From the NCBI GenBank assembly GCA_016839815.1, contig JAEOTM010000069.1:1-64000 (forward strand): a stretch of DNA of 64,000 bases, read 5' to 3'. The translations under genes were made by a program, and so were the position numbers. Below the pieces are notes generated by a model. It saw only the letters and a program-made list of their open reading frames with translations, made no database searches and had not been told where the DNA came from. The stretch is from Candidatus Hodarchaeota archaeon (lineage in GTDB: Archaea > Asgardarchaeota > Heimdallarchaeia > Hodarchaeales > Hodarchaeaceae). Position 1 is the first letter of the stretch. Every line of letters begins with the position of its first letter. Shown piece after piece: positions 26,047 to 44,784 of this stretch.

Positions 26047-27393
26047 TTGATAACAATGGTTGACCCACTTTTGATTGGAGTATCCTTCTTCTTGTTAATT
26101 GTACTATTTATCGTTATTCGTAGAACAGAACTCATTCCGTATCTTTATATCTATTTTATTGGGAAGAAAGATCTTCCTGTTAACCTTCCAAGTGATTTTG
26201 GTCTAGAGCCAATCTCAATTTCCTTTCCAGTGGGAGAAAATATGCAGAACGCTTGGTTTTTCCCTAGTAAACAGGATAATGACGCAACCATTCTGATGAT
26301 TCCCGATTGGATTACTGAACAATCGTTGGAGAATAGTTTGAAGACATCTGGAGTATTACAATTAATGGGGTTTAACGTTTTACTCCCAATTATACATCAT
26401 ATTGATGAATCAACCCGCCTTCTTCTTAAAAAGAATTTATCCCCACGATATTACACTTCAACCATTGAAAGCGCGTATGAGTACCTTATATCACGGAAAG
26501 ATCTCGATAAACGCAAAATTGCTGTGTACAGTGATTCATTTAGCACATTACTAGTAAGTAGCTTAGTAGGAGATCAGGCCATCCAGGCTGTTGTCCTTGA
26601 AAATGGACCCAGTTCACTCGGAACTTTAATTTCTCATCAATTTCCCTACACAGGATTCGGAGTTAGAGTCATTAGAAGTATACTCCGTCATCTACTAGGC
26701 GTATTTCTGTGGAAAACACGTTGGGATAGAGGTCGTTCTTTATCTATGCTCCATTCCTGCCCCACATTTCTTGTATCAGTCTTCAATCATAGAGATCAAC
26801 CAAATCGGAATATCTTCAAAAATTTCACCTCTTTATATAAACCAAAACAACTCTGGCTCGAAAATGCACTTCTTCCATCAGGGGGGATTCGTGATACATG
26901 GCCAGAGGAATATTTTTCACAGGTAAAGCATTTCTATGACCGATGGATAAACAAAGATCCCGCACCTGAATGGCATTGTGAGATGAAGGTATCAAAGAGT
27001 GGGAAAAAGGAATATACAACTTCACTTACAATTTCAGTTCTTCCTCCTCAGATGGAACAGCTTCCATTAAATATTACTTTGTCTAACCGAAAGAATCAGT
27101 TACATCAAGAACGAGTATGGTTTTTAGGAGCAGAACAGACTTATCAAATTCAAACCCCTTTTCGATCAAACTTTCACTCTCTGTTACCTTATTTTAACAT
27201 AGAAAGAACTGGAAATGAGCAGATTCCCTGGATTAAACTAGAGGCAGAGGAAGCTCTCATACATACGGTTCAAACCATTGTTTCTCTTAATCTATCAGAT
27301 TTGATTGACTATGAAGAAAGATATTTTATGACCAAAGATCAATTAGTAAAGGACATCAAGTCAGAAGAATCCGTTTCTGCTACCCTACCTTAG
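26047..27393 (+). CDS. Membrane-anchored alpha/beta-hydrolase-fold protein, degenerate active site
   Basis: N-terminal TM; PSDFGL, NAWFFP, KIAVYSDSFS (canonical GxSxG eroded), PKQLW; extra C-terminal beta domain. Confidence 0.65.
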   Translation: MITMVDPLLIGVSFFLLIVLFIVIRRTELIPYLYIYFIGKKDLPVNLPSDFGLEPISISFPVGENMQNAWFFPSKQDNDATILMIPDWITEQSLENSLKTSGVLQLMGFNVLLPIIHHIDESTRLLLKKNLSPRYYTSTIESAYEYLISRKDLDKRKIAVYSDSFSTLLVSSLVGDQAIQAVVLENGPSSLGTLISHQFPYTGFGVRVIRSILRHLLGVFLWKTRWDRGRSLSMLHSCPTFLVSVFNHRDQPNRNIFKNFTSLYKPKQLWLENALLPSGGIRDTWPEEYFSQVKHFYDRWINKDPAPEWHCEMKVSKSGKKEYTTSLTISVLPPQMEQLPLNITLSNRKNQLHQERVWFLGAEQTYQIQTPFRSNFHSLLPYFNIERTGNEQIPWIKLEAEEALIHTVQTIVSLNLSDLIDYEERYFMTKDQLVKDIKSEESVSATLP

Positions 27394-27676
27394 CAAATTG
27401 ACAGGATTCACAAAAAGGAGAATTATGAGCAAACAATGAGCAATGAAATCTGATCTTTCTTGAATTTTTTACAGAAAAATAAAGGCATTCAATATTAAAT
27501 TTTTCCTGTTTTACTTTTTCTAGATTGCCAATCTTCCCTTCTTCAAAAAAACCGCACTGATTTGGGCACTTACTAATCCACTCATGATATTTAATACAAA
27601 AAGAAAGGGAATTTCCTGAAGTAGTCAGTAAAGCGATGCACGGCTTGAATATTGAGTTATCTATCTCTTGTCCCAC
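27380..27676 (-). CDS. Cys-rich small protein (paralog of 53106..53420)
   Basis: 8 Cys in the pattern C..C.xY..CPxxC..F.IECxYF..FxCxL..PxCxxC. Confidence 0.7.
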   Translation of the reverse strand: MGQEIDNSIFKPCIALLTTSGNSLSFCIKYHEWISKCPNQCGFFEEGKIGNLEKVKQEKFNIECLYFSVKNSRKIRFHCSLFAHNSPFCESCQFAKVG

Positions 27677-27808
27677 TCATGTCACCGTTCAAAATATAGT
27701 GTAGTCTATTCCATTATAAGCATCTCGATTTTCGTTCAAATTTTGAGTATATATGCTTCATACAGAATCAGTACCAGATGACTCATTTTTCTCTGAGGCT
27801 AAATTCAA

Positions 27809-28264
27809 ATGACAACTATGCTACAGGATCCCCACATACTCATCTATGATAACTTATTTTTCAGATTATCGCTTGGAAAATGCGATATACGCATTTTCAA
27901 GGAATCAGAATGGTTTACCGAGGAATATGTTCTTGTAAGACCTGTTTATCAGAATCGGTTGGTTCTGCTCAAAGATATTCTATCATCTTCTAGTGACAGA
28001 TTAAAGAGATCTATCTCTAAGGAAAACGGAAATTTTATTGAAAAAAGTGGTCAATTTATTCAATTCATTAACTACTCAGACATAACAAATCGAGAATTAA
28101 TTGGATTGGGTTTGCGAATTACTTCGAATTCTAAAATATCTCCACAAATACTTGAAACTTTAATGGAGGATAGAATTCAGAAGATCATGTTTCTTCTCTC
28201 AAGAGGTATGTTAAAATCTCAATATCATCGGATAGATTACTTGGATATTGAAATAATGATATAA
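27809..28264 (+). CDS. Hypothetical protein
   Basis: 151-aa ORF; first gene of an apparent 3-gene operon. Confidence 0.55.
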   Translation: MTTMLQDPHILIYDNLFFRLSLGKCDIRIFKESEWFTEEYVLVRPVYQNRLVLLKDILSSSSDRLKRSISKENGNFIEKSGQFIQFINYSDITNRELIGLGLRITSNSKISPQILETLMEDRIQKIMFLLSRGMLKSQYHRIDYLDIEIMI

Positions 28265-28277
28265 ACAATGATTCACT

Positions 28278-29063
28278 ATGGCTACCATTACTTCAGAACT
28301 ATTAGAACAATACTTGGATTGTCCACGCCATTTTTATTTTAGTAAAATACGTGGGATTAAGCTAGCCGAGAATTCTAGATGGGAAGTTATTGAATGGAAT
28401 CGGAATCGAATAAAGAAAATTACATTTGAGTATTGTTCTTATCTTTCTAAAATTTTAGGACAGGAAATTGGTAAGAAAATTGAAAATCTCGAAAAACTTA
28501 GTAACGTACTTCCTTTAAGTTCCTACTGCGTATTTGCTACTTCATCTCGTACGGAAGCCAATTTCGATCTAATTCCCAAGATTTGTGCATATTTAAATTT
28601 CGTTTTATTCTCTATATGGCAAGAAAGCAAATTAAAGCACAAAAAAAAACGAATCCCAGTTTCTCTCACATTTCTTCCCAAAGCAGACATTCCCCATGAC
28701 CTGATATGTGAAAATCCAACGGCTTTAATTGAATATTCGGATAATAAAACAGCATTAGTACATCAGAATTATACATCTCCGCAGGAAAAAGGGAATGAAC
28801 ATTCTACAGACGTAGTTACTTTATTCTTAGTCAATTTGTTTCACTCTAACTTGACTAGAATCATTTCAATTGATTATCGAACAATGAAAATATCTTTTGA
28901 TAGCATAAGTAAATACAAGTCTCAATTCTTAAGATCTAAGTTGCATAAAAAGGTAAAATATTTCACTTTGCAAGAATTTGAACCTCAAATATCTAATGTG
29001 TGTGATATTTGCGAGTTTAAAATGATATGTGATCATTCGAAGGAAGGAATAAGAGATGGTTGA
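28278..29063 (+). CDS. Cas4/AddB-like PD-(D/E)XK-fold protein with Fe-S staple cysteines
   Basis: N-terminal YLDCPRHFYF and C-terminal CDICEFKMIC; no clear D..(D/E)xK catalytic motif. Confidence 0.7.
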   Translation: MATITSELLEQYLDCPRHFYFSKIRGIKLAENSRWEVIEWNRNRIKKITFEYCSYLSKILGQEIGKKIENLEKLSNVLPLSSYCVFATSSRTEANFDLIPKICAYLNFVLFSIWQESKLKHKKKRIPVSLTFLPKADIPHDLICENPTALIEYSDNKTALVHQNYTSPQEKGNEHSTDVVTLFLVNLFHSNLTRIISIDYRTMKISFDSISKYKSQFLRSKLHKKVKYFTLQEFEPQISNVCDICEFKMICDHSKEGIRDG

Positions 29064-29925
29064 ACTATTGGATCTTTTGGTAGATGCGTTTGGTGATTTC
29101 ATAAATTGGTATGCACTGGAAGCTGTGCAGGGGGAAAATCTAGTAGATTTTTTTGTAAAGCAGATTTCATATTATATCGTACTTCAAATAGTTCTATATT
29201 TTATTCCCTTTTTACGCAGAATATTAATGATTTTTTTTCTTCCCTTCCGCTGGATACATGTCTATTTACATGTCTATACAGCCAAACAGATAATGAAAGA
29301 AATTGAGTCTCGTAAAGAGTCAGGAGAAAAAGAACCAGTTATTGATACAGGTAATCTTCGTGCATCTTTAATCTCAGGAATTGATGTCCCAGATGAGAAT
29401 CCAGGATTATTAATGGGATTCAATCGATTTCATTATGCTCGTAGAGTTGCGTTGGCACCAAATAAACTGGCATTTATAATGTTAATCGGGTATTTGATTG
29501 TGACTCCTCTGATTTTTGCGGATACAGGGGTTCTTTCTTCTCAAGTAGGAGGATTAGTACATTTGTACCTATTTATCGGAATATTTGGAGTTCTTATGCC
29601 AAGTCTAAATGACTGGTATTTTCTGATTCATGCTTTAATGATAAATTTAGAAATTAGACCATTCTGGTTTTACAATGCCATTCTGGTGTATGTTATTTTC
29701 ACATTTGACACTCTCTGGAGAACACAAAATTTCTTCCTTTCTATACTAATTGGAACAGTATGGTTTGTACTCTATATAATTGGTTTATTTGTTGTAGGAT
29801 ATATTGCCCAAGGTGGAACTATCAAAAAACCAGTTTTATATTGGATACCAACCGAAAAACCTATGACACCATTCTCAAAGAAACCAGAAATCGATTTTCT
29901 TTCATTGGAAGACCTTGACCTCTAA
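29056..29925 (+). CDS. Polytopic membrane protein, M50/zincin-like with eroded HExxH
   Basis: Several TM helices; HVYLH, VALAP and PSLND occur in the order seen in M50-like membrane metalloproteases; overlaps the upstream gene by 8 nt. Confidence 0.55.
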   Translation: MVELLDLLVDAFGDFINWYALEAVQGENLVDFFVKQISYYIVLQIVLYFIPFLRRILMIFFLPFRWIHVYLHVYTAKQIMKEIESRKESGEKEPVIDTGNLRASLISGIDVPDENPGLLMGFNRFHYARRVALAPNKLAFIMLIGYLIVTPLIFADTGVLSSQVGGLVHLYLFIGIFGVLMPSLNDWYFLIHALMINLEIRPFWFYNAILVYVIFTFDTLWRTQNFFLSILIGTVWFVLYIIGLFVVGYIAQGGTIKKPVLYWIPTEKPMTPFSKKPEIDFLSLEDLDL

Positions 29926-29939
29926 TAATTAACAATCAT

Positions 29940-30641
29940 TCAAATCGAGAACAGATTAAAGTCTGTTGATCCAATATAATTATTGAACATATAGAAATCT
30001 AATGAAGATTTGGAATTAGATTTATATAAAACAGATTTTGTGATACAAAAAGGATCTAAAAAAGTATTTTTATGATTTTTTTCCTTTGAACTGGTAGAAA
30101 GGGGATGATGAGTTATAATGATAGGTATTTTTCTTATAGAAGCAATTTTTCGAAGATCTAACATATAAACAAATATATTGCGATTCCATTTCTTTTTAGA
30201 TTCCTTGAAAAGCTCAATAAATTGTAAGGGCGATCCAAATATTGTATCTAAAACTATAAGAGAGAGGTTTGGAGAATCTCCCTCCAGAATTTTCTTACTT
30301 AGAATAATTGCGTCAATAAATGAGGTTGGATTGAAAAATTGGATATTATCCAAAAATTCAGATGTTTTGAGGACTTTTTTAAGAGTCTGGAATCGAATAT
30401 TTCCTGAAAAATTTGAATAAAGAATTTCTGCATCCTGATTGTATGTAAGCAATGAATTTATAATTCGTTGACAGAACCACGACTTTCCAACTCCGGGTTC
30501 ACCAATTGTTAAATGGAGATGTCCTTCATAAACTCCTCCAGTAATGCTATCTATAAAATTAATCCCTGTTGGAATTTTTTGTAAGATTTCAAGCTCTTCA
30601 CTCATAAAAGAGAGGCTTTTAACTAAAAATCTCGTTTTCAT
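29940..30641 (-). CDS. RecA-superfamily ATPase (RadB/Rad51-paralog-like)
   Basis: KIPTGINFIDSITGG, Walker A GEPGVGKS, Walker B LIVLDT, IPIIIT. Confidence 0.8.
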   Translation of the reverse strand: MKTRFLVKSLSFMSEELEILQKIPTGINFIDSITGGVYEGHLHLTIGEPGVGKSWFCQRIINSLLTYNQDAEILYSNFSGNIRFQTLKKVLKTSEFLDNIQFFNPTSFIDAIILSKKILEGDSPNLSLIVLDTIFGSPLQFIELFKESKKKWNRNIFVYMLDLRKIASIRKIPIIITHHPLSTSSKEKNHKNTFLDPFCITKSVLYKSNSKSSLDFYMFNNYIGSTDFNLFSI

Positions 30642-31090
30642 CCTGATTCGACCACAAAATGTGTGGATTCTTCTACTGGAAACAGTTCTCTAGATGTCAA
30701 AACAGTAATTATACATAATTTTGCTAATTTTTTAATATACATCCAGATTTCATTATTATTAGCACAATTAGGAGGATGATGAATAATTACTGACGAAAAA
30801 CCCTTTTTTATTACTTCTGAAAGAATAGTGGGCTTAATTAAATAATTATAATCATCAATTGAGAGGAACTCCATAAAGTAAATATTCTCTAGTGCAGGTC
30901 GTTGATGGGAAAAATTATGTAATAATATTAAGGGGATTACTCTAAAATCGATCCAGAGTACCTTGGGTATAACCCATTCATTGTATTTCTCCTTTAAAAT
31001 GAAGTGAACACATGTTTCATATTCTCCTATTACCACATTAGGCTGAGAGAAAGTTATTGAACATTGAGAACTATTCATTCGATTCTTCAC
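30638..31090 (-). CDS. Hypothetical protein, possibly a minimal inactive RecA-fold paralog
   Basis: KVLWIDF and ALENIYF echo RecA-core strands; no Walker A; 4-nt overlaps with both neighbours. Confidence 0.45.
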   Translation of the reverse strand: MKNRMNSSQCSITFSQPNVVIGEYETCVHFILKEKYNEWVIPKVLWIDFRVIPLILLHNFSHQRPALENIYFMEFLSIDDYNYLIKPTILSEVIKKGFSSVIIHHPPNCANNNEIWMYIKKLAKLCIITVLTSRELFPVEESTHFVVESG

Positions 31091-32151
31091 AATCTCCCTA
31101 GTTCAGACTCTAAAATCTGATCATCTTTTTCAGTAAGTTCCTCCTGGTAGACATAATAATATGGAATCCCAAAGAGTACAAAAATTAAGAGAGGAGTCAT
31201 TATAATTCCTGGGATAGGATGATCTATCAAATCTAGATTATTATTTGAAATTAATTTTTCTTTTAATACTCCATGAACTTGGAGTGTAAATGTTATGTCG
31301 GAATAACCATCATGAGAGTCAATGATTGGAATAATATGAATATCAATATACCAGACGTGATCTTTCAGGTCATCTTGATTTATAGTGGTGTTGATAACAG
31401 CGATATTGTCCTCAATCAGATACTTACTACTCTGCCCTGTTGTAAGGGAGAGGTAATCAAATTTACCTCCTATAATTTCTAACTCAAGATTAGTGGTTAA
31501 TAATTGATTATCTGGAATTTGGACGGGAAGATAGCTTCTCAAGAGTAAACGCTCACCAAAATATGAAATTTGTGAGGATTGAAGAATAAAGTGAAAGTTT
31601 TTTGACGTAATCAATAAGGGTTGCTCAGTAAGGGGTTGTACAAGATTTATAGCATAAAGAGAGGCTGAAAATATTTTAAAATTGTATTCAACTTCACGCC
31701 ACGAAATCAGAGCATCCAAATAAATGGAAATGGAAATTGAGAGGGTTTCTTGATAAGTATAATTTAACGGGATAATCAATGTTTGAGGTCGATCAAATTG
31801 GTAAACCAAACAATTCTTGAGTCCATCTCGTTCCTTACTAGAAAACGAGTGATCAGTACTTAAATCGTTAATCTTGGAAGAAGTCTGAATGAAGTCAATT
31901 GCTTCTCCATAATTTTGTACTGATAAGTTCAGAAATAGTTTGTCCCATTGTTTCGATAACACAACTAATCTCGTAAAGGTGATTTCGGGATTATTCATCA
32001 TGTAAGCAATATTCAAATTATAAGATCTGTCAACTTCTTCTCTTTGCTGGGAAAAAACCAGTGAAGATCCCTCACAAATACTTAGTACACTGTGAATACT
32101 CAAAAAAATACTAAAAATAATACAAATTTGTCTTCTATCACCTAGAAACAT
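31087..32151 (-). CDS. Exported beta-rich protein with C-terminal TM anchor
   Basis: Hydrophobic N-terminal signal; C-terminal IPGIIMTPLLIFVLFGIPYYY followed by an acidic tail. Confidence 0.65.
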   Translation of the reverse strand: MFLGDRRQICIIFSIFLSIHSVLSICEGSSLVFSQQREEVDRSYNLNIAYMMNNPEITFTRLVVLSKQWDKLFLNLSVQNYGEAIDFIQTSSKINDLSTDHSFSSKERDGLKNCLVYQFDRPQTLIIPLNYTYQETLSISISIYLDALISWREVEYNFKIFSASLYAINLVQPLTEQPLLITSKNFHFILQSSQISYFGERLLLRSYLPVQIPDNQLLTTNLELEIIGGKFDYLSLTTGQSSKYLIEDNIAVINTTINQDDLKDHVWYIDIHIIPIIDSHDGYSDITFTLQVHGVLKEKLISNNNLDLIDHPIPGIIMTPLLIFVLFGIPYYYVYQEELTEKDDQILESELGRL

Positions 32152-32153
32152 GC

Positions 32154-32720
32154 TTACTGGCCCCTAAATAATGATAAAAGTACACGGGAGAAGTTTAAGG
32201 AGAAGAAAAATAATCCCATATTTCCCAAGTTTTTATTTGCTCTTGGATCATTAAATGGAATACGTGCTATACGGAATTGTTTTGAATTTTGGGGGAAGGT
32301 CCAATGAAACTTATAATGTTTTACAGGATGGTTACTAAAAACGGATTGTCTTCCTAAAGGTAATCCACCTGGATTCAATGAATCCAGTAGCAAATGTGAT
32401 CCCCAACTTATTGCTATTAGGGAGATTAGGATTTCTAACATCATAATATGTAATATTTGCGCAAGATATACAAAGGGAAGAAAATAAATCATTGTCCAAG
32501 GAGAATGGGATAGTGGATGCCTATAACGTGAAATTAAAACACCTTCATTTTCAAATTCCACCCCGATATTCCTATCAATGATGTTAGGAACCCAACTAAA
32601 TAAGCTGGTAAAAAGAGACACAATCAGCACAACCCCTGAATAAATACTGTCATCAATTACGAACATTCCATATAAATTCGTCAAACCTAAAGAAAATAGG
32701 TAATGTGTCATATCTTTCAT
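32154..32720 (-). CDS. Membrane-bound metal-dependent hydrolase (YdjM/DUF457-like)
   Basis: THYLF, PNIID, RHPLSHS, GSHLLLDSLNPGG. Confidence 0.8.
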   Translation of the reverse strand: MKDMTHYLFSLGLTNLYGMFVIDDSIYSGVVLIVSLFTSLFSWVPNIIDRNIGVEFENEGVLISRYRHPLSHSPWTMIYFLPFVYLAQILHIMMLEILISLIAISWGSHLLLDSLNPGGLPLGRQSVFSNHPVKHYKFHWTFPQNSKQFRIARIPFNDPRANKNLGNMGLFFFSLNFSRVLLSLFRGQ

Positions 32721-32725
32721 TCTAG

Positions 32726-35700
32726 TCAGTTTTCCTTTCTTCGAAAATATACATTAGCAAGAGTGGCAAAAGCAGCGAATAGACTTATTCCAATTCCAGA
32801 TTCAATTAAGTCATTTAGTCCTATCTGGGAGTGAATTTTTTGTTGAGTTTCTGTTTGAGAACTTTGTGGTGATTGAGTAGTTCCAGTAGTTTGTTCGGTA
32901 GTAAAAGATTGCTCTTCCGAACCATTCACCTGGATATTAGGAAAATATTTCACTGTTTGTTGACCAATATCATCTATTACTGATATCTGGAGTACATATA
33001 CCCCTGATGTCAAAAAGAACTCAAGGATAACGTGAGAATCATTTATTTGTGTGAACGGATATTCTACACCATTAATATACAGAACTGCTTTATCAACAAG
33101 ATAATCATCAGAAACTTCGATTACCAATCGATAAAGTACACCCGAGGTTATATTTTCCAAAAGAAAAAGAGTGGAATCACCGATAAGGGGAGGTGAATCA
33201 GAAGAATTAAAAATTGCGGTATACCGACTAGAATGTCCATAGATATCAAAAACAGACAAATTAAATTCCCAAACATCTGGAATTAACCATGGGGAAGTAA
33301 ATCTCCAAATTTGATAACTCCCCATTGTCGATTCGTAAATTAAGGTTCCATTTACCGAATATTCTTCAGTAGCACCTTGAATGATGAAGGTCGGTATTTC
33401 TTCTGCAATCGATGCATTTGCCTTTTCGATCCGAATCTCTAAACTAAATCCGTTTCGTTCGAAAGATGAATCCATTATGATAATTTGAGGGGCATACCAT
33501 GAGATATTGTATCTTTTATTTAGTGAAGGGTTATTATCCCATGGATACCACATATTCAAACTTACTGTATAATTTTCTGGATCACAAAACACTTGTGTAT
33601 ACCATTGATTTCCATAGATGTTGCTTAGACTATAATCTGCTCCCGCTAAGGTAACTTGGACAAGATCAAGATCAATAGACTGAGAATCTATAGTTGCTCT
33701 TACTTCATACCTATTTGACTCCCAGGATGTAGATAGTGATGTAATCGTAGGTAGTGGTGCAACCCAGAGTTCAAAAAAGATTCGAGTATCATACAGTCCT
33801 TCAGTAGTATTTGCATACAAATAAACTTCCCAAGTACCAGGAGAAGGAAATTGAAAACTAAGACGATAATCCTGAAAGAATGCATCCCATTCTAATATGC
33901 CTACATTACTTCCATTAATATATAACCCGACTGTGTTGAAATTAGGATTTGAGAGAATTTCTGTGTTTACATAGTAATTACCTGCAGCATCTATCTTGGT
34001 GATCTGTGAATTGATTATTAGATTCACGTGTTCAACAACAGAAAAGCAAATTTTCTTTGTATTTACATTCCCTGCTGCATCATACGAATAGATATTCAGT
34101 GAGTAAGTCCCAAATAGCAAATTCAAATTTGATATACTATGTGGAGTATAGGTTTGATTTGTACTATGTATCTCTGAGATACAATAAAGTATTGTTTCAC
34201 CATCTGAATCTATACTCAACGGCACAGCATCGGTATAGCTGTAATTATAGGGAGAAACAATATTTAAATACGGAATAATTGTATCAACGTTGAAAAAACA
34301 CGATTTAATGATAGCATTACCCGCAATGTCATTAACCTGAATGGTAAGGTTATGACTTCCCTCTGATAAGTTAGACAGACTTGTACCTGAACCTCCAACA
34401 GTATGGACACCATCTAGGAACACAAATACCTCTTCTTCGTTAGTTAAGAATGAAAGTAGAACAGAATTCATGTTATAAGACTCATTCCTAGGACTAACTA
34501 TGATTAATGACGGTTCAGTTAGATCAATACTGAAAAATGAAGAAACGAAAGATATTTCACCATAGGAATTTTCCCCATAGGCATTACAGGTATAGAAACC
34601 TTCTGGTAATTCACGAAAAACGGTTTCACTCCATGAAACATTTGTTTGGTCCAAAGGTTCAATATTATACCAATAACTATCAGCATTTCCTTGGAAGGAT
34701 ATCTCTAGGATCGACCCGTATACAGAATTATTCGATGGGGAAAGAATTTCTAGTGCAGAGGGTAGAGATCTAATCATGATGGAATATTGACCACTAATGG
34801 ACGCATTATAATAATCTTCACTGTTTAATGGCACTTTTACTGCAATTGTATAGGTTCCAGGTTGATCAAATAAGATGAGGAAATGAAAAATTCCAGCTCC
34901 ATTTGTGGAATCTATCGCCGTTTCAATACCATTTACAAGTAGGATGGAATCTACTCCTGAAATTGGACCAGATACTTCTCCAAGGACAGTTCCATCAATA
35001 TTGATGGATAAATTGACAAGAGCTTCCGCAGGAATACTGATAGAAATCTGAAGATCTTCAATAACTGTTATTTCATGCGAATATACATGATAGTAAACAT
35101 AAGTCTCATTACTAACAATTAATATTTCCTTAACTCCTGTACTAGTAAATATATACGCATACGAATGTTGTCCAGCCTGAATCCCACCTTTCCAAAGCAA
35201 ATCATTGATCCAAATTTGATAAGATTCTGAACAGTTGACCATGAATTGATAGTAATCATTTGTATTCCCAAATTCAGCCCCAGTAACTTCCATATTCGCA
35301 ACACTGTACATAGTTGCATGATCATATTTCAAATTCGTTTGATTTGAATTTGATGCACGTAAAGTTAACCCTCCTTTATAATAAGGAGTGGACCAATTGT
35401 AATTTCCTATTCCAGAGCCATTTAACGTGAATACTGTTATAAACTCCCAATTCGTGGATCCATCTCGTTGCCAATGCAACCTTATGTCCTCATTTAAACC
35501 GCCTTCAATGGATATTACTGACCAATGATTAGCAAGAATGGCACTCTCAATGAGAAGTGAGAGAGGAGGACGAATTGTGATGGTAAAGATTCCTGGATTT
35601 GGAGTTGCGAGATAATATCTTCCCAAATTCCCTTGATAACTGCACTGCAGAATATGAATTCCTATCTGAGCTGATTCAGCTACAATGAAATCAAAATAAA

Positions 35701-37540: not shown

Positions 37541-37603
37541 TCTAGTAACTCTCGATGATTATCCCTTCCTGTGTTTTTATATTCAAAATGAATATTTATA
37601 AGT

Positions 37604-37647
37604 AGTATATAAAAAAACAATTTTTTCACGATTTCAGATATTTAAGG
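37604..37647. promoter_or_regulatory. Bidirectional promoter carrying shared island motifs
   Basis: AGTATATAAAAAAA (37604-37617), TTCACGATT (37625-37633) and ATTTCAGATATTTAAGG (37631-37647), about 40 nt before radA. Confidence 0.7.
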
Positions 37648-37686
37648 TTCAGCTGGATTCCAAGTTGAATACAACAAAATCGGTGT

Positions 37687-38709
37687 ATGTTTATGGCAAA
37701 AGCTGAATCAAAAAAAGAAAAAGCTGTTGTAGAGGACTTAGTTTCTGAAAAAAGTAAGAAAACTAAGGGAAAAAATCAAAAAGAAGCCAATTTTTTGGAT
37801 ACTATCTCTGGAATAGGCCCTACTACGCGAAAAAGACTAGAAGAGGCTGGATTTGGCAGTAAAGAGACCATCGCTCTAGCTACACGATCCCAGCTCTCAG
37901 ATATTTCTGGAATTGCAGAAAAAACCGCTACTGTCCTTATCCGAGAAGCACGGTCACAATTTGATCTCGGTTTAAAACCTGGATCGCATTACGCAAAACT
38001 CGGAGAAACTCGTCAGTATCTCACTACCTCATCTCAAGCATTTGATGACCTTCTTGGAGGAGGTTTCGAAACAGGATCGATAACAGAGATCGCAGGCGAA
38101 AATGGATGTGGAAAAACACAAATTTCTCATCAGTTAGCAGTTAACTGTGTAAAAAATGGCAAAGATGTTGTCTGGATTGATACTGAGGGAACATTTCGAT
38201 TTACTAGAATTTCTCAAATGGCTGAAGCCCTAAATCTTGACCCTGATGCAATATTGTCTCAAATTACGGTTGGTCGAGCATTCAATAGCGAACATCAGAT
38301 GGCACTCACAGAAGAAGCATTAACCATGGTTCAAAATGTAGGACTAATTATTGTGGATTCCCTAATGGCACACTTTCGTTCAGAGTTTGCAGGAAGAGCT
38401 ACCTTGGCCGAACGTCAACAGCTAATAGGAAAATATCTTGCATTTATAGCTAAGCAATCAGAAATATTGAATTGTGTTGCAGTAGTTACTAATCAAGTAT
38501 CAGCGAAACCTGATGCAATGTTCTTTGGAGATCCTAACAAACCAATTGGTGGTAATGTAGTAGGCCATACCGTGACAACTAGATTGATGATTCGCAAAGG
38601 AAAAGATATAAAACGAACAGCTACACTAACAAAAAATCCAGAGTTACCTGATGGAAAAATTGAATTTTCAATCGATACAGATGGGATCCGCGACTATTCA
38701 AGTAAATAG
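37687..38709 (+). CDS. radA: DNA repair and recombination protein RadA (possibly a paralog)
   Basis: N-terminal HhH (ISGIGP), GGGFETGSITE, Walker A GENGCGKT, WIDTEGTF, DSLMAHFRSEF.GR..LAERQQ, PIGGNVVGH. Confidence 0.9.
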   Translation: MFMAKAESKKEKAVVEDLVSEKSKKTKGKNQKEANFLDTISGIGPTTRKRLEEAGFGSKETIALATRSQLSDISGIAEKTATVLIREARSQFDLGLKPGSHYAKLGETRQYLTTSSQAFDDLLGGGFETGSITEIAGENGCGKTQISHQLAVNCVKNGKDVVWIDTEGTFRFTRISQMAEALNLDPDAILSQITVGRAFNSEHQMALTEEALTMVQNVGLIIVDSLMAHFRSEFAGRATLAERQQLIGKYLAFIAKQSEILNCVAVVTNQVSAKPDAMFFGDPNKPIGGNVVGHTVTTRLMIRKGKDIKRTATLTKNPELPDGKIEFSIDTDGIRDYSSK

Positions 38710-38748
38710 TCCTCCCTTTTTTCTGTATGGAGCTGAACTGGGACGCTT

Positions 38749-41337
38749 TTGACTCAAATATCTACGAAAATTCTTGAAGATAATACGACTCTTCTCCAGA
38801 TTGAACATCCATTGACTAGTAGGGAAGTTCTATATGCTTCCAAAGGAGTTTTGGTATCATATTTTGCTATCCAACCAGTTCATGATCTTGACAATGCTGC
38901 ACGGAATTTATTTCGTGTAACAAGTCAACCTGGAGTGCAGATCCTCCGACAAACATTCACAGCTCTCCCACGAAAATCGAAAGCTTATTCAAAACGAGAT
39001 GTCTCCTATACAGGCCTTTCTCTTATTGTACGTGTGTTCCATCATTTTCATATTCGTTCTGAATCCACATTACCCATAATATTACGACATATAAGAAAAG
39101 AGTTTCTCAAACAGCGTACCCTAACCTATACTATTCTCAAGGTAGCTGGATTCGAGGTTTCACTCGCTAAAGGAAAAAGAATTTTCGATTTGCATTTTCG
39201 GGGAAAAAAGATGAAAGAAGGAATCTCCATCTTCCCTTCTCAAACAGGATCAAAATCTAAATTACTTGATAGATTCTTTAATCTTGAACGAGTACCCTCA
39301 CGATTTATCCAGGACTTTGCAGTCCCTGATTTACCTGTAATTCATAGAATAGGTTATCGAGTTGATAATACAGCGATCCCTGTTGGCTTTGCAGACTTAT
39401 CTGCTGGATCAATCCTTGTATGCGGGTCAGATAATTCGGAACTCATCACGCTCTTTCAGAATCTGACACTCTCATTTAGTATTTCGAAAAATAACAGAGG
39501 TTTATTCATTATCGATACCCACAACGAGTTTAATGGGTTAATTCAACATTTTAGATCTTCAGAATCAAATAAACAGGGAATAAATCTTCAAGTGTTCCAA
39601 TTGGGTACAAATATGTTTATTAATCTCTGTGATGTCATTATTCCTCCCTCTCCTAGTGGTAAAAAGCAGAAATCCGAAGCTATTGAAGCATGGAAAGCTC
39701 ATCTTGTTAGTAATATTCTTTTATGCTCCTTATCAACTTCTGATTATCTTACATCGCGATTTGCAATACCTCTCGAAGCACAAATTCGAAATGCAGCCAC
39801 TGGAAGATCTATCTTCACCTTGGAAGATGTTACAACAACTATTGGTTCATCAACTTCTGGTGAGCTAGAGTCAGAGATCGGAGCAACCGATGGAATTTTT
39901 GCTGATATTATGGCCATCGAACATTTAAACGGAATTTTAGATCAATTTAAGGCATTTAAAGAGGTAAATTACCCTGCATTTACTGGTCATCTCAGTAATT
40001 CTCTTTTTCGTGATGATTCTATTACAATTTTTCAATTTGGTGCACAACCTCCAATGATAAAGCGAGCTACAGTTGCTTTCTTACTTCAATTCCTATCAAT
40101 GGTTGCTAGAAACGGTGTGGTAGTCTTTCCCCATGCAGATGAGATTCTGAGTAGAAAAACTCCTTATGGAAGGAATGAAACAGGTATTCCCACAGTATTG
40201 ATTGACTCGGTAAATAACCTCTCTCGAGAGAATGTTTTGGTTTTAGGTGGTCAAAGTGTTCAAGCCTTAGCTTCCAAAGTAAACTCCTTTGAGCAAATTA
40301 AAAATCAAATTTACTTACGTTTAGTGAATACACTGGATAGAGAAATCGTAATAACTCAACACCAATTAAAAGTAGGGAATGGTGTTCAATCCGCTACAAT
40401 TGAAAGACAAATATTGGGAATAATGGAAGGAGAAGGATTATTATTTCGAAGTGATACGTCTCAGAGTACCGCATATCATTTTAAGATGGATCGAGCTAAA
40501 GTACCAATAAATCTTAATCCAGTCAAAGTCACAGAGACAAAACTAAGGGGATCAAAGACTTTTGGTCTCATTCCACAGAAATTTGCACTTTTAATGAACC
40601 TACTAAAAACTCTCAAAGCACAGCCTCTTAATCGAGATATGTTACATGATGAACTTGAAATTGAGAGTAGAGACGAGACACTACTTGAACAGATGAAACA
40701 ACAGGATTTATACTCAGAAAGAGAAATTGATGCAGCGAGACAATGGGAAATAACTGTTAAAGGTTCAGAATTTTACGATAATCAAGTGGCATTAATGGAA
40801 AATTTACCAGCAGCTCCCACTACTGAGGAAGCAGAATCAATTGAACAGAAAATTGCCATTTCAGAAAGATTTTTTGATAGAACTGCTTCCAAGCAGAAAT
40901 TACAGGAAGAAAATGTCAAGATCAAAAATATGGTTGGAGAATTACTAAATTTTCTATATCAAATGCAAGGTTCTATCCCTTGGGTACGTTACGCTCAATA
41001 TACAGATTTAAAGGAAATAAATGGTATTGAAGGTCAGGATTTTCGTCAATTGTACAATCTCGCCTTAGAAATATGTTCAGATATTTGGCTAGATATAAAG
41101 AATGTTAGAAAGATCCATAAGAACGATAATGTACCATCTATTCCAATCATACCATCGATTCCTGGCAATAATTCCGGGAATCTTGATAAATTTTTACCTG
41201 ATGATAGATATGTCTCACTGCAGACTTTTAGTAAGGCACTAGGACTTAAGAAGTACCCTGATCATGGGATTCTCGATGTACATTTTAAATTTCTTAAACA
41301 GGGAAAACGCCTTGTTGAAGAATTAAACTTGGAGTGA
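38749..41337 (+). CDS. HerA/VirB4(CedB)-like P-loop protein with degenerate Walker motifs
   Basis: Family-like order: IPVGF, ILVCG (Walker A eroded), FIIDTHNEF, helical insert, VVVFPHADEIL (Walker B position), LVLGGQS, NQIYLRL, MEGEGLL; wHTH-like C-terminal region. Confidence 0.6.
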   Translation: MTQISTKILEDNTTLLQIEHPLTSREVLYASKGVLVSYFAIQPVHDLDNAARNLFRVTSQPGVQILRQTFTALPRKSKAYSKRDVSYTGLSLIVRVFHHFHIRSESTLPIILRHIRKEFLKQRTLTYTILKVAGFEVSLAKGKRIFDLHFRGKKMKEGISIFPSQTGSKSKLLDRFFNLERVPSRFIQDFAVPDLPVIHRIGYRVDNTAIPVGFADLSAGSILVCGSDNSELITLFQNLTLSFSISKNNRGLFIIDTHNEFNGLIQHFRSSESNKQGINLQVFQLGTNMFINLCDVIIPPSPSGKKQKSEAIEAWKAHLVSNILLCSLSTSDYLTSRFAIPLEAQIRNAATGRSIFTLEDVTTTIGSSTSGELESEIGATDGIFADIMAIEHLNGILDQFKAFKEVNYPAFTGHLSNSLFRDDSITIFQFGAQPPMIKRATVAFLLQFLSMVARNGVVVFPHADEILSRKTPYGRNETGIPTVLIDSVNNLSRENVLVLGGQSVQALASKVNSFEQIKNQIYLRLVNTLDREIVITQHQLKVGNGVQSATIERQILGIMEGEGLLFRSDTSQSTAYHFKMDRAKVPINLNPVKVTETKLRGSKTFGLIPQKFALLMNLLKTLKAQPLNRDMLHDELEIESRDETLLEQMKQQDLYSEREIDAARQWEITVKGSEFYDNQVALMENLPAAPTTEEAESIEQKIAISERFFDRTASKQKLQEENVKIKNMVGELLNFLYQMQGSIPWVRYAQYTDLKEINGIEGQDFRQLYNLALEICSDIWLDIKNVRKIHKNDNVPSIPIIPSIPGNNSGNLDKFLPDDRYVSLQTFSKALGLKKYPDHGILDVHFKFLKQGKRLVEELNLE

Positions 41338-41348
41338 GATGAAGCTCA

Positions 41349-43091
41349 ATGGAAATAAATCTCCCCTTAAAATTGGAATTATTTCCCCATGAAGAATTAC
41401 GAGCATATCAGGCGAGATTCCTACGCTTTGTAGAAAAACACACTAGATCTATTATTCATGCTCCAGTCGGATTCGGTAAAACGGTGATGGCCTTAACCAG
41501 TACATTACCATTAGTGAAGACTCAGCAGTATCAACTTTACATCTTTGTTAGAACAAAAGCGCAAATTTTCCGTGTTTTCTTTGAACAATTACGTAAAATT
41601 GCCAATACTGACAAATACGGTTATTTAACTGCTCTTCCATTAATCTTGAAGTCGGATTTATGCATTAGAGGTGATGTTCCATTTTTCTATCAGGGAATTT
41701 GTGGAAAAATTCGATGTCCACATTTTGAAAAGGCACGTTCCATCCCTGAAGAAGACTTTCCAACCATTGTTGAGCAGGTTCCCATCACAACTCATGAAGA
41801 GGAGATAACGATTGAGACTTTCAAGGACACACTACAGGAATTTGGTTGTCCCTATTATATCATCAAGCGTTGTATCCCTTATGCAAATATTATCGTTACC
41901 ACCCATACATATCTAAGAAGTAAAATTTTGCAAGGTATTCTCTCCACATTCCTACAAAAAAGCCTTTTTCCTAATAAAATCTGTGTTATTGATGAAGGAC
42001 ATAATTTTTCTGCAGAAATTGAGGCTGAAATCTCTTTAAATGACATCTATAAAGCCAGAGATATTATTCCTCTAAAAGTATTTGATTTACTACAGAATAT
42101 GATTCAAAATCGAACCGGAAGAATCGATCGTCCACCTAATTTAACCTCTGATGCAATAGATGCATTTCTTGATCATCAAATCAAATTATCTCCTTGGGAA
42201 CAGACGCACCTCCTTCTAGTTAAAGATTTTTTAAACAGTCGCGGAGAAATCTGGATTTCTGATTCAGAAAAATTGTTACAGCTTAATCCCTTCCCTCAAA
42301 CAACATTTAGATTTATCAACAATGAGTTCCAAAGTATCCTATTAATGTCTGGAACATTCCAACCTGTAGCATCTTATAAAACTCTTTATGGTATAAATTA
42401 TCCAGGTCTGTTCATTCCATCAGATTTCCAGTATAGTTTGAATGGCATTCTTTATCACAGGCAATTCAGCACAAAATATCGAGAAAGAACGTCCCAGACC
42501 TTTCAAGCAATGGCTTATGTAATAGAACGATTACATCAAAGAAACCCTTTTCATACGATCGTTTTTACTCCCTCACATGAATTAAAGCAGAAGATTCTGG
42601 CCCATATGGCTTTGTCAAATATTTATATTGAACAACCTGATGAAAGACCTTTTTTTATTGAAGACCTTAATAAGAAGTCGCATGAGGTTATTTTTGGGGT
42701 GCTAGGGGGAAAATTATCAGAAGGAATTGAAATCCTCGATCCGCGAACTAATCGTAGCCTATTAACTTTAATTATTATTGCTGGAGTGCCATATACACGT
42801 CCAGATATAACAAATCGATTAATAAAAAGTCTTTATACACGAAAATGGGGTAAGAGAATGGCTGATCACCTTTCTCTATTACCTGTCACTCGATCAATTA
42901 CGCAAGCAATAGGAAGAGGAATTCGATCAGAATCAGACTTCGCAGCCAGTTTAATCTTGGATTACCGAGCTGCTACCTTACGCACAATGTTACCTGGAGC
43001 AATCATTTTTCGTGATCTTAATGCTTGTTATCGAACATTTGACTCTTTTTTTACAAAAATGAGAAGGGAATTTCTAACGAAATATCCGTAA
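41349..43091 (+). CDS. XPD/Rad3/DinG-family Fe-S helicase
   Basis: Q-motif LRAYQ, APVGFGKT, Fe-S cysteines (DLC, GIC, RCPHF, GCPYY), IDEGHN, MSGT, GKLSEGI, QAIGRGIRSESD. Confidence 0.92.
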   Translation: MEINLPLKLELFPHEELRAYQARFLRFVEKHTRSIIHAPVGFGKTVMALTSTLPLVKTQQYQLYIFVRTKAQIFRVFFEQLRKIANTDKYGYLTALPLILKSDLCIRGDVPFFYQGICGKIRCPHFEKARSIPEEDFPTIVEQVPITTHEEEITIETFKDTLQEFGCPYYIIKRCIPYANIIVTTHTYLRSKILQGILSTFLQKSLFPNKICVIDEGHNFSAEIEAEISLNDIYKARDIIPLKVFDLLQNMIQNRTGRIDRPPNLTSDAIDAFLDHQIKLSPWEQTHLLLVKDFLNSRGEIWISDSEKLLQLNPFPQTTFRFINNEFQSILLMSGTFQPVASYKTLYGINYPGLFIPSDFQYSLNGILYHRQFSTKYRERTSQTFQAMAYVIERLHQRNPFHTIVFTPSHELKQKILAHMALSNIYIEQPDERPFFIEDLNKKSHEVIFGVLGGKLSEGIEILDPRTNRSLLTLIIIAGVPYTRPDITNRLIKSLYTRKWGKRMADHLSLLPVTRSITQAIGRGIRSESDFAASLILDYRAATLRTMLPGAIIFRDLNACYRTFDSFFTKMRREFLTKYP

Positions 43092-43104
43092 GAATTGAAT
43101 TCAG

Positions 43105-44523
43105 TTACTTATTTCCCTCACCTAAATTCTTAAGATGGAAAAACCGTGCTTCTTCACTGGTTTGTTTTGTAAGCAAGAAGATTCTTGGAATTGGCACCAA
43201 TAAATGATTTAACCTCTCGAAAATATCTGCATTTACATCATATGCAACAATGATGTTTGCTAGATTCGCAATTTGATCATTAACTGAATTTGAGATACAT
43301 ACTTGAATCTTTTTACTACTAAAGCCAAAGAGATTCTTTTCTAGTTGTAAACCGCAGAGGGAGGAAATCAGTTGAGTTATATGAGTTACCGATATTCCTT
43401 TTTCCTTCAATCTTCTTTCAAGAAACTTTGCGTTGTACCTATTATTCGTGACAAGAGAAACGTTTGTCTTATGTGTATCAATAAGTTTAAGAATCTGGTT
43501 AAATTTAGGATGCTCCAATTTGGGGAATAGTAAAACATACTCACGAAGTTTCTTAATGAGAGGATTCCCTAAAAACTCAACTAATGCTTTTTTACCGATA
43601 ATATTATCTGAATCGTTTAAACGACTCTGTAATTTATTAAGATAGGATGTGAAAGCTGGAAATCCCTGAGAAATTACTATTCGCTGCATGTTCATGATTC
43701 GCTGTAAATTTGCTGTTTTTACGAGATGTTTTCCAGGCTTATCATTTAATAAACTCTCATGGATAGCTGCTATTTGCTGAGGTGTGCTTTTTACTGAGAC
43801 ACTAAAACCTAGGTGTTCAAGTTCCATCAATCGATTCTTCTTCATTTGATCAAGAATGTCTAGTACAAAAAAATATTCCTTGGGTAGAGGAAGGGAATAG
43901 TGTTGAATATTTGATCTTTCACTCCGAATATCTCCATCAATCTTGACAATTTCCATAAGCTCTAAGTTTAAACACGCTTGTTCAAGTTTGATATTATTTT
44001 TCTCTCTTGAAAGACCTACTAGCTTTTTTGGAGTCAAGTTGCTAATAATGTATCTCAAGGATGATGAGGAAACCCCCATTTCGGCATAATCGATAATAAC
44101 CAATGAAAAATGATCTTTTTCAAAGAAAGATTGTTTATAATCATTCTTTACCGTTTTAGGAGTAGATATTATAATACTATATCGATTGTAATCCATTTTT
44201 CGTGCTTGGGGAAGGATTTGTCCATTGTGAATTGTCACAACCTGATTTATATATTCTTGAATTCCTGTCTTGAATATTTCTTGGATCTGTCGTTTTGTAA
44301 GAATTAAAACTCTTGGAATTGCTTCCAGTCCTTTCTCTAACGAAATATTCAAACTTATAAGCAAAGATAATATCCGAAATAGTTTTTCTTCTATCCGATA
44401 TTGTAATAAACTATTCTGTTTCTGAATTTGTGCTAAGAGGACTTGTTCTTCGAGTGTGGGAGAGAACTTCAACTTATGAGAAGGATTTCCATTGGTTTCT
44501 GTCAAACTCACACTGAGGTCCAT
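43105..44523 (-). CDS. Hef/FANCM(Mph1)-like helicase-fold protein, catalytically degenerate
   Basis: IIISTPKTVKND, FSLVIIDYAE (DEAH eroded), VGLS, EHPKF, IIVAYD, TSEEARF; no GKT Walker A and no ERCC4 domain. Confidence 0.7.
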   Translation of the reverse strand: MDLSVSLTETNGNPSHKLKFSPTLEEQVLLAQIQKQNSLLQYRIEEKLFRILSLLISLNISLEKGLEAIPRVLILTKRQIQEIFKTGIQEYINQVVTIHNGQILPQARKMDYNRYSIIISTPKTVKNDYKQSFFEKDHFSLVIIDYAEMGVSSSSLRYIISNLTPKKLVGLSREKNNIKLEQACLNLELMEIVKIDGDIRSERSNIQHYSLPLPKEYFFVLDILDQMKKNRLMELEHLGFSVSVKSTPQQIAAIHESLLNDKPGKHLVKTANLQRIMNMQRIVISQGFPAFTSYLNKLQSRLNDSDNIIGKKALVEFLGNPLIKKLREYVLLFPKLEHPKFNQILKLIDTHKTNVSLVTNNRYNAKFLERRLKEKGISVTHITQLISSLCGLQLEKNLFGFSSKKIQVCISNSVNDQIANLANIIVAYDVNADIFERLNHLLVPIPRIFLLTKQTSEEARFFHLKNLGEGNK

Positions 44524-44556: not shown

Positions 44557-44784
44557 TTACTTCAATCCTTCTATTGGTTCCACCCAGTTTCGGTGTGCGC
44601 TACAAGAAATTACTTTTGAATTTTTTACCACTAATACTGAGGGCATGCGTCTATTCAACAGTAAAGAACATATACCTCCGATCCCCCAATTTGCAAATTC
44701 ACATATTTGACATAATGGACTATTTACAAAAATTTCATCAAGAAAAGGTAGACTAGTTGGTCGGAATATTGGTTGACTTGTCAC
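44557..44784 (-). CDS. Small Cys/His metal-binding protein
   Basis: CQIC...C...CSAH; AGGTGA RBS upstream of the GTG; co-oriented 33 nt upstream of the Hef-like gene. Confidence 0.55.
   Translation of the reverse strand: MTSQPIFRPTSLPFLDEIFVNSPLCQICEFANWGIGGICSLLLNRRMPSVLVVKNSKVISCSAHRNWVEPIEGLK

Follow-up and report, generated by a model that had tools for sequence, protein, structure and literature searches.

The 64,000 nucleotides (nt) of contig JAEOTM010000069.1 analysed here (the window), from the Candidatus Hodarchaeota archaeon assembly GCA_016839815.1, carry three disabled homologs of nucleic-acid enzymes, a Hef-like, a HerA-like and a Cas4-like protein, which have been kept by purifying selection over the depth of the genus or longer. 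The region that holds them is a genus-conserved neighbourhood built around a single-copy xpd gene and a strongly conserved radA paralog, and, taking all the evidence together, the three proteins probably act there as non-catalytic scaffolds or regulators. An earlier annotation made from the letters alone (the first-pass annotation) had described at least six long uninterrupted open reading frames (ORFs) in this region as pseudoenzymes. The three named above stood up as such, a hydrolase-like protein and an ORF of 150 amino acids (aa) are plausible cases, and the sixth, taken for an M50-like protease, is unsupported. All six ORFs are present and uninterrupted at the coordinates given below, and orthologs of each occur at syntenic loci within the genus. 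The window corresponds to contig C9 in a genome (G000) of 4.24 Mb in 206 contigs with a completeness of 89.5%, and the syntenic loci (L-numbers) were taken from 14 genomes (G-numbers) of the genus. Homologs of two of the ORFs come from sources named, for instance, Candidatus Hodarchaeales archaeon and Candidatus Hodarchaeum mangrovi, and Atlas neighbours belong to Promethearchaeota.

The Hef-like protein (472 aa; 43105–44523, minus strand) is a homolog of the helicase domain of archaeal Hef. An hmmsearch of PDB with the profile of its orthologs retrieved the Hef helicase domain of Pyrococcus furiosus (1wp9) with an E-value of 7.3e-18, positions 17–457 of the query being aligned colinearly to residues 9–484 of the 494-residue chain over 441 profile columns, and the similarity covers both RecA-like domains together with the inserted helical domain. 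The NCBIfam model NF010337 was matched at 1.3e-22 and 79.8 bits (cut-off 610). The motifs of ATP hydrolysis are gone in all 10 orthologs: motif I (PTGxGKT; PTGLGKT in 1wp9) faces sequences of the YRIEEKL- or YSSEEAL- type, motif II (DEAH) is DYAE in the window and NHAE, DQAE, LSAE and the like elsewhere, the Glu never being present and the Asp unconserved, and motif VI (QRRGRTGR) faces an arginine-free LNxLxVxIP region. The Hef-like protein has no Pfam Helicase_C match, while the paralogs at L015 and L017 do. Other landmarks are retained, among them STPKTVKND (ATPQTIEND in 1wp9) and HPK. The view of the first-pass annotation, which had noted DYAE and the missing GKT, that this is a catalytically dead homolog is thus upheld by the loss of motifs I, II and VI in every ortholog, and at the level of sequence motifs its status as a pseudo-helicase is confirmed.

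Compared with P. furiosus Hef, the colinear helicase domain is shared, whereas motifs I, II and VI and the ERCC4 nuclease domain are lacking, the window protein stopping after the helicase domain. Eukaryotic XPF carries an ATPase-dead helicase-like domain, and the Hef-like protein likewise retains the fold without the ATPase motifs. However, the profile matched no eukaryotic XPF or FANCM chain in PDB and showed no specific affinity to either; therefore, the resemblance is treated as a functional analogy and not as demonstrated ancestry. Some of the orthologs are longer, with an additional C-terminal region of about 150 aa (L005:15135–17024, L006:1051–2955, L007:1769–3688, L011:2913–4835, and L012:17582–19423); the copy at L008, cut at the end of the fetched stretch, is apparently extended as well, and the extension is absent from the copies of the window, G018, G013, G001, and G016. 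No Pfam model matched the extension, and ERCC4 (PF02732, E up to 1, five genomes) was not found in it; it might be a degenerate nuclease.

A canonical Hef helicase is encoded elsewhere in the same genome (contig C147, 482 bits), along with a second intact paralog on C162 and a separate XPF-type nuclease, and relatives carry full-length Hef proteins of 754–761 aa. The canonical Hef of G000 is a helicase-only frame of 522 aa (C147:28415–29923) and the frame of the separate nuclease (C45:54671–55288) contains an in-frame TGA, while in relatives the fused 754–761-aa Hef is accompanied by a short XPF (about 240 aa). The arrangement in G000 could be a genuine split, one made by the assembly, or a case of recoding.

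The HerA-like gene (862 aa; 38749–41337, plus strand) lies between radA and xpd. Its product had no Pfam match at E up to 10, including DUF87 and HerA_C, and no match in NCBIfam or in PDB sequence-profile searches; its kinship emerged from structure prediction. An AlphaFold2 model built from 26 family members (mean predicted local distance difference test, pLDDT, 78.5) retrieved in Foldseek only HerA, VirB4/TrwK, and DndH chains among the top 50 matches (E 1.3e-10 to 1e-7, probability 1.0), and against the ATPase domains 4ag6_B and 7es4 gave TMt values of 0.63–0.64 with a root-mean-square deviation of about 6.2. Language-model features (Atlas) placed the protein with DUF87/TrwB clusters (0.92–0.93). 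An hhalign comparison with the HerA of the same genome was colinear (P 0.056) and paired IIDTHNEF with LIDPHGEY, THAxE with EEAH, and GEGLLF with GEALLV. In the true HerA, SGAGKS precedes LIDPHGEY at the corresponding distance; in its place the window protein has GSDNSE and other family members GSTNTE or GSDRSL; GK[ST] occurs in none of the 29 aligned orthologs and paralogs, even those only 26% identical. The Walker B position, FPHADE in the window, faces IEEAHQ of HerA (E to P and E to H) and varies within the family (ADE, AAE, SEE, TPE, AAK, and AHK). The structural check thus agrees with the first-pass annotation, which had called the protein HerA-like without GKS: on the predicted model, it is confirmed as a pseudo-ATPase.

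The protein shares with HerA, VirB4, and DndH (4d2i, 4ag6, and 7es4) the predicted fold, the order of family motifs, the size and the multi-domain build with an N-terminal beta-rich domain, but differs from them in lacking GK[ST] and a DUF87 match and in the absent or variable Walker B pair. Unlike HerA, it continues at the C-terminus into about 250 aa of additional helical sequence, and the NurA, Mre11, and Rad50 families are absent among the Pfam and NCBIfam matches of its neighbouring genes; its conserved partner gene is xpd. The family was found in 20 of 21 genomes of the genus and in the sister family; the class has four more families, in which the same query found no member. At least nine genomes have the gene either between radA and xpd or next to xpd at the edge of a contig. 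In the sister family, a P-loop-less paralog of 26% identity (L037, G020:C420) adjoins an XPD homolog (36% identity). These sequence comparisons suggest that the HerA-like/XPD association is old. Five other loci of G000 pass the DUF87 cut-off. A distant HerA-like paralog with 27% identity (L044, G000:C128:2008–3690) contains six stop codons and is a real pseudogene; the window copy is intact.

The Cas4-like protein (261 aa; 28278–29063, plus strand) alone scored 18.9 bits with PDDEXK_1, below the cut-off of 22 bits. An exhaustive search with the family profile recovered 103 proteins at E up to 1e-3 among 1.84 billion, and all 10 of the distant matches that were scanned belonged to PDDEXK_1 (E 1e-16 to 1e-30), 8 of them matching Cas_Cas4 as well. 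Four cysteines, expected to bind a 4Fe-4S cluster (C15, C242, C245, and C251; C...CxxCx5C), are invariant in 18 aligned sequences, active homologs included. In contrast to these active homologs, which have G-x-x-D, [DE]-x-K, and Q-x3-Y in the joint alignment, every Hodarchaeales member has S or T in place of the motif II aspartate (PSAVF, PTALI) and IQT, HQN or IHT in place of [DE]xK. The QxxxY motif is kept as QAxIY in most other orthologs and lost in the window copy (TDVVT), P0055, and P0058. With Cas4 and PDDEXK_1 proteins (PF01930, PF12705; PDB 4r5q) the protein shares the N-terminal C-P-R, the C-terminal C-x2-C-x5-C and a length of about 250 aa, but it lacks the catalytic D, E/D, and K, and QxxxY is lost in the subclade of the window. 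Also unlike Cas4, its gene has no CRISPR array (clustered regularly interspaced short palindromic repeats) nearby and is co-transcribed with a gene for a polytopic membrane protein, the stop of the one and the start of the other overlapping by 8 nt. The absence of a clear D..ExK motif, from which the protein had been judged inactive, holds throughout the family, and from its sequence the protein is confirmed as an inactivated member of the PD-(D/E)xK group.

Values of dN/dS (the ratio of nonsynonymous to synonymous substitution rates, omega) were obtained by NG86. Over the genes compared, those against the closest genomes, G018 and G013, were 0.03–0.35 and are rough, since dS is saturated there (1.3–3.1); the pair G001/G016 is unsaturated (dS 0.2–0.5). 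The six ORFs gave 0.07–0.42, and the membrane protein 0.05–0.07 over all comparisons. The Hef-like gene had an omega of 0.14 in G001/G016 and 0.07–0.08 against G013 and G018, the HerA-like gene 0.08–0.16 against the latter two, and the Cas4-like gene 0.28 in G001/G016 and 0.26–0.28 in relatives overall. In the unsaturated pair, radA had 0.08 (0.03 with the closest genomes), the membrane protein 0.07, the 233-aa ATPase 0.18 and the 150-aa ORF 0.42 (0.34–0.42 overall). Against the closest genomes, the hydrolase-like gene had 0.17 and u151, the gene preceding the Cas4-like one, 0.13. Every gene is thus well below 1, with no ratio near it. The argument against simple decay, drawn originally from the absence of stops and frameshifts in the six ORFs, gains from these ratios and from orthologs intact across the genus; gene decay is not under way in any of the ORFs.

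The expectation that catalytic loss would be conserved across orthologs was borne out for the Hef-like, HerA-like, and Cas4-like proteins, in which the loss is found in all orthologs. Because it is common to all orthologs, catalytic loss in the three proteins is ancient and maintained. The presence of intact Hef, HerA, and RadA paralogs elsewhere in the genome makes the window copies extra, specialised ones, and fits duplication followed by loss of catalysis. The three families were found only in the genus, in the sister family or in proteins named as Hodarchaeales, and literature searches returned no earlier description of them.

The interval from 25.5 to 45 kb is tightly packed with genes at a flat GC content of 32–38%, and its gene order is recognisably kept, with rearrangements, across the 14 loci of the genus. 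The radA, HerA-like, and xpd genes occupy 37687–43091 on the plus strand. The RadA paralog (340 aa; 37687–38709) has intact motifs (Pfam Rad51, E 5.6e-71) with an invariant Walker A sequence GENGCGKT; G000 encodes three further RadA family members, and two RadA clades have been reported in Heimdallarchaeia (PMC12722695). The XPD helicase (580 aa; 41349–43091) likewise has intact motifs, with GFGKT and DEGH present and matches to DEAD_2 and Helicase_C_2, and no second copy was found in G000. Convergent to these three genes, a 75-aa Cys-rich ORF and the Hef-like gene lie on the minus strand (44784–43105). Upstream, the hydrolase-like gene (26047–27393) is followed on the plus strand by the operon of u151, the Cas4-like gene and the membrane-protein gene (27809–29925), and between the two plus-strand groups a minus-strand operon runs from 37540 to 29940 through genes for a 1604-aa Ig-like (immunoglobulin-like) protein, a YdjM-like protein, a 354-aa transmembrane (TM) protein, the 150-aa ORF and the 233-aa ATPase, with gaps of at most 5 nt or 4-nt overlaps. 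In G001 and G016, the Hef-like gene is on the same strand as the Cas4-like and membrane-protein genes, the three making up a single string.

A further link is a 15-mer, TTTYAGATATTTAAG, present in exactly three copies in the 4.24 Mb, all within the window, against about 0.2 copies expected from base composition by our own estimate. One copy (TTTCAGATATTTAAG; 37632–37646, plus strand) lies 41 nt upstream of radA, another (TTTTAGATATTTAAG; 44842–44856, minus strand) upstream of the operon of the Cys-rich ORF and the Hef-like gene, and the third (47195–47209, minus strand) upstream of a gene for a 375-aa protein (45994–47121, minus strand). Both G018 and G013 conserve the 15-mer ahead of radA, and G018 does so ahead of the Hef-like operon too; it is a candidate regulatory or promoter element shared by radA and that operon.

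The 150-aa ORF (30638–31090, minus strand) overlaps the 233-aa ATPase gene (29940–30641, minus strand) by 4 nt, indicative of translational coupling, and the pair occupies 31090–29940. The ATPase has a RadA core of the RadB/aRadC/KaiC type: hhalign against RadA gave a probability of 96% (E 4.8e-9), the NCBIfam RadB model was matched with E 4.2e-8 and 33 bits (cut-off 172) and the FlaH/ArlH models with E 5.6e-5. Its Walker A (GEPGVGKS) and Walker B motifs are intact, G47, G50, G52, K53, and D132 being invariant, and it is not a pseudoenzyme. The 150-aa protein has G-x-Y-x4 at the place expected for the P-loop and no GK[ST] in eight orthologs. It was aligned to the adjacent ATPase by hhalign over 110 colinear columns with P 0.008 and a probability of only 5%, and to RadA over just 14 columns, a single strand, with P 0.061; a PDB profile search returned nothing for the family, and its members had no consistent Pfam matches. 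Of the earlier description as RecA-like without a P-loop, the second half is correct, while the RecA fold is unproven, the hhalign P of 0.008 with the neighbour being the only indication. Complex prediction for the two proteins scored 0.78, compared with 0.33 for the best of three controls; 58 of 80 solved complexes reach the mark for this score, as do 2 of 110 mismatched pairs, counts that apply here only approximately, since our own alignments were used. The prediction runs shared at least 88% of contacts, and the pLDDT of the partner was at least 80. On this modelling, the 150-aa protein and the intact RadA-core ATPase are probably partners in a heterodimer. The yeast Shu complex contains Psy3-Csm2, non-catalytic partners of the Rad51/RadA-paralog kind; as in Psy3-Csm2 or archaeal RadB/aRadC, a small P-loop-less protein would here be coupled to, and is predicted to bind, an intact RadA-core ATPase. 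The pair differs from Rad51-paralog partners in the unproven RecA fold of its smaller member and in its place at the end of a surface-protein operon, and KaiC ATPases of the ArlH/FlaH type are an equally close model for the 233-aa protein.

The polytopic membrane protein (289 aa; 29056–29925, plus strand) had been called M50-like, with HVYLH in place of HExxH. The motif H-V-[YF]-[LF]-H is conserved in its family, both His and the Val being invariant in 27 members; H68-x3-H72, H169, and N185-D186 are invariant and DEN at 113–115 near-invariant. The family has only Hodarchaeales members, without Pfam annotation; none of the 27 matches a peptidase family in Pfam, and a PDB sequence-profile search gave nothing useful. 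Foldseek against PDB, VIA-align, and the Atlas shape search found no match of the site-2 protease (S2P) type for the structural model, 3b4r being at rank 28 in Foldseek with E 8.4 and a TM-score of 0.30. Faint language-model leads (0.81–0.82) pointed to Peptidase_M50B and DUF3267 clusters, and Peptidase_M50B (PF13398) had no usable members in 21 related genomes. The protein resembles M50/site-2 proteases (PF02163, PF13398; PDB 3b4r) in being polytopic and in having H-x3-H in a helix, but the Glu of HExxH is Val in every family member. The M50 assignment is thus unsupported, and with it the reading as a pseudo-protease. The protein is best listed as an unassigned membrane protein that may bind a metal.

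The alpha/beta-hydrolase-like protein (448 aa; 26047–27393, plus strand) has an N-terminal membrane anchor. A family search returned only Hodarchaeales members, none with Pfam annotation. Of the 16 members, 12 matched BAAT_C, the best with E 2.4e-4 and none reaching the cut-off, while other weak matches were scattered singletons. A weak MHETase match had E 0.8, and an alignment of dienelactone hydrolases (DLH) was matched weakly by hhalign (P 0.035, 97 colinear columns), with the central Ser of S-D-S-F-S placed on the nucleophile Cys of G-F-C-M-G. This position is Ser in 12 of 16 members and E, G or Y in the other four. The inferred catalytic His (W-x-E-H-A) is present in eight relatives of about 480 aa and replaced by N in the window copy and by N, D or T in all eight members of its subclade of about 445 aa. 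Retention is complementary, the 445-aa subclade having mostly the Ser and no His, and the 480-aa subclade the His with E or G at the nucleophile position in three of eight. The reading of SDSFS as a lost GxSxG fails because a small-x-Ser-x-small elbow is legitimate and keeps the nucleophile Ser; loss of catalysis is nonetheless plausible from the missing His, and, judged by these residues, the protein is probably non-canonical or inactive. The similarity to BAAT_C and DLH (PF08840, PF01738) lies in a weak but consistent elbow match, colinear strands and Ser as the nucleophile; the differences are P-[ND]-W in place of the HG oxyanion motif, the His absent in the subclade of the window, the TM anchor at the N-terminus and some 150 additional residues at the C-terminus.

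How the conserved disabled proteins work can be proposed in outline. Most likely, the Hef-like, HerA-like, and Cas4-like proteins would be DNA- or protein-binding scaffolds or regulators, and their partners would be the adjacent active enzymes XPD, RadA, and the RadA-core ATPase. Placement of the HerA-like gene inside the radA–xpd operon, the co-operonic position of the Hef-like and Cas4-like genes in some relatives, and a common promoter element, unique in the genome, under which radA and the Hef-like operon may stand, are consistent with such partnerships; direct in-silico support comes only from the predicted heterodimer of the 150-aa protein and the RadA-core ATPase. By analogy, the proteins might be repair-complex subunits comparable to Rad51 paralogs, ERCC1, and FAAP24, as the first-pass annotation inferred.

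A number of observations weigh against this proposal. Apart from the saturation of dS noted above, the HerA-like gene sits away from radA–xpd in about half of the genus, and in those genomes no conserved neighbour was found within 1.5 kb of it. In the close relative G013, the Cas4-like gene is a remnant of 30 N-terminal codons (L002, 16169–16258) between intact u151 and membrane-protein genes, and G003 and G012 lack the ATPase, 150-aa, and membrane-protein genes at their syntenic loci, so some members of the set can be dispensed with. The predicted complex of the 150-aa protein may reflect the memory that the model has of RecA-family interfaces. The giant Ig-like, YdjM-like, and TM proteins, which make up half of the neighbourhood, look like surface or membrane proteins rather than DNA repair proteins. 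The concentration of pseudoenzymes is an apparent one, a plain count in this window, and loss of canonical motifs would be compatible with non-canonical activity.

The same genes have a serious alternative reading as a surface- or membrane-associated apparatus for DNA handling or transfer, possibly induced by damage, in which the dead enzymes would be structural parts; we consider it unlikely. Its components would be the giant surface protein, the polytopic membrane proteins, the VirB4/HerA-fold protein, the KaiC/ArlH-like ATPase pair and DNA-processing accessories, and DNA exchange by the crenarchaeal Ced/Ups systems provides a loose analogy for a damage-induced apparatus. VirB4/TrwK chains are among the best structural matches of the HerA-like model, the RadA-core ATPase also scores on FlaH/ArlH and ends the operon of Ig-like, YdjM-like, and TM proteins, the Cas4-like gene is translationally coupled to that of the polytopic membrane protein, and the third copy of the 15-mer precedes the gene at 45994–47121. 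However, a HerA/VirB4-fold protein lacking the P-loop cannot power translocation, pilin, secretin, and CedA-like families were not detected in Pfam and NCBIfam scans, the most conserved neighbour of the HerA-like gene is xpd, a repair helicase, and the surface operon and the repair genes may just be adjacent. We regard it as very unlikely that the proteins are still enzymes, with catalysis resting on non-canonical residues or on an active site to which a partner contributes in trans, in which case the term pseudoenzyme would be a misnomer. The Ser of the hydrolase-like protein in its small-x-Ser-x-small elbow, the conserved H68, H72, H169, N185-D186, and DEN 113–115 of the membrane protein, which could form a metal site, the invariant Asp in IIDTHNE and the conserved Arg and Asp in the LRL.N..DRE region of the HerA-like protein, and the strong purifying selection on all of them would suit such activity. 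Yet the Hef-like protein has lost three separate ATPase motifs, the HerA-like protein both the Walker A Lys/Ser and the Walker B acidic pair, the latter position being variable, and all metal-binding and catalytic positions of the Cas4-like protein are non-acidic and non-basic across its family; nor do alternative intact residues appear, the alignments showing no conspicuous invariant cluster of acidic or basic residues.

Genes of the HerA, Cas4, and superfamily 2 helicase families are typical of defence and mobile islands, and the region could be taken for a rapidly evolving one: the anti-phage HerA proteins of SIR2-HerA and DUF4297-HerA are top structural matches of the HerA-like model, gene content differs among relatives, a GIY-YIG gene is found at the flank, and a HerA-like paralog elsewhere in the genome is disrupted. 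This origin appears highly improbable in view of the synteny in 14 genomes of the genus beside single-copy xpd and a radA with dN/dS of 0.03, and the ATPase and nuclease activities needed for defence are exactly those that were lost; a recent mobile island was rejected on the flat GC, the genus-wide synteny and the lack of integrase, transfer RNA (tRNA) or repeat borders. That the ORFs are young pseudogenes which have not yet acquired stops is hardly credible. The Cas4-like and 150-aa ORFs do evolve fastest (omega 0.28–0.42), the window copy of the former has lost QxxxY in addition, and G013 has deleted the gene, but intact orthologs at 20–70% aa identity with omega well below 1 occur across the genus, and the catalytic losses are common to all orthologs and even to 26%-identical paralogs. 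Simple gene decay was rejected on this conservation and these ratios, and is essentially refuted for five of the six ORFs.

Beyond the scaffold or regulator role, a more specific scenario can be drawn, which we rate as unlikely. In it, a DNA-processing module under common regulation, perhaps responsive to damage, would have arisen independently in Hodarchaeales, and in this module the active motors XPD, RadA, and the RadA-core ATPase would be joined by dedicated non-catalytic paralog subunits. These would comprise a Hef-derived helicase-like domain, a P-loop-less ring or scaffold of HerA/VirB4 fold on XPD, an Fe-S Cas4-like DNA-end binder tethered to the membrane protein, and, as partner to the RadA paralog, a protein without a P-loop. 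Such a module, if real, would be a prokaryotic precedent for pseudoenzyme-rich eukaryotic repair, as represented by the XPF helicase-like domain, FANCM-FAAP24, and Rad51-paralog complexes.

Scaffold pseudoenzymes are a hallmark of eukaryotic DNA-repair machines and, to our knowledge, have rarely been documented in archaea. Hodarchaeales are usually placed closest to eukaryotes. If the disabled homologs are indeed partners of XPD or RadA, they would offer a tractable archaeal model, from the lineage nearest the eukaryotic stem, of how repair complexes gain non-catalytic subunits after duplication. Of the new leads, the linkage of the HerA-like gene with xpd is the most concrete, as it suggests that XPD has an unknown accessory factor. 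The annotation of the region is also corrected in two points: one of the claimed pseudoenzymes is not M50-like, and SDSFS is a plausible nucleophile elbow.

Among the other genes of the region, a GIY-YIG domain protein of 136 aa (25572–25982, plus strand; Pfam GIY-YIG, E 2.2e-11) precedes the hydrolase-like gene and adjoins it also in L005, L007, L008, and L009. The 151-aa u151 protein (27809–28264, plus strand), first in its operon, has orthologs at 6 loci and no Pfam or NCBIfam match. The 75-aa ORF directly upstream of the Hef-like gene (44557–44784, minus strand) has the pattern C-x2-C ... C ... C-x2-H, and ORFs of 88–106 aa take its position next to the Hef-like gene in L005, L006, L007, L011, L012, L013, and L014. 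No tRNA or Rfam elements were found in the window. In the minus-strand operon, the 354-aa protein (31087–32151), with a C-terminal TM segment, has orthologs at 12 loci and no family match in Pfam and NCBIfam searches, and the 1604-aa Ig-like surface protein that heads the operon (32726–37540; Pfam Big_13, E 1.6e-10) has orthologs at 13 loci. The 188-aa membrane protein (32154–32720), also with orthologs at 12 loci, is weakly assigned to YdjM/DUF1286 (E 6.7e-4 and 1.3e-3, both under the cut-off). YdjM of Escherichia coli is a LexA-regulated inner-membrane protein, and the gene for the YdjM-like protein of the window belongs to one transcription unit with those for the giant Ig-like protein and the RadA-core ATPase pair.

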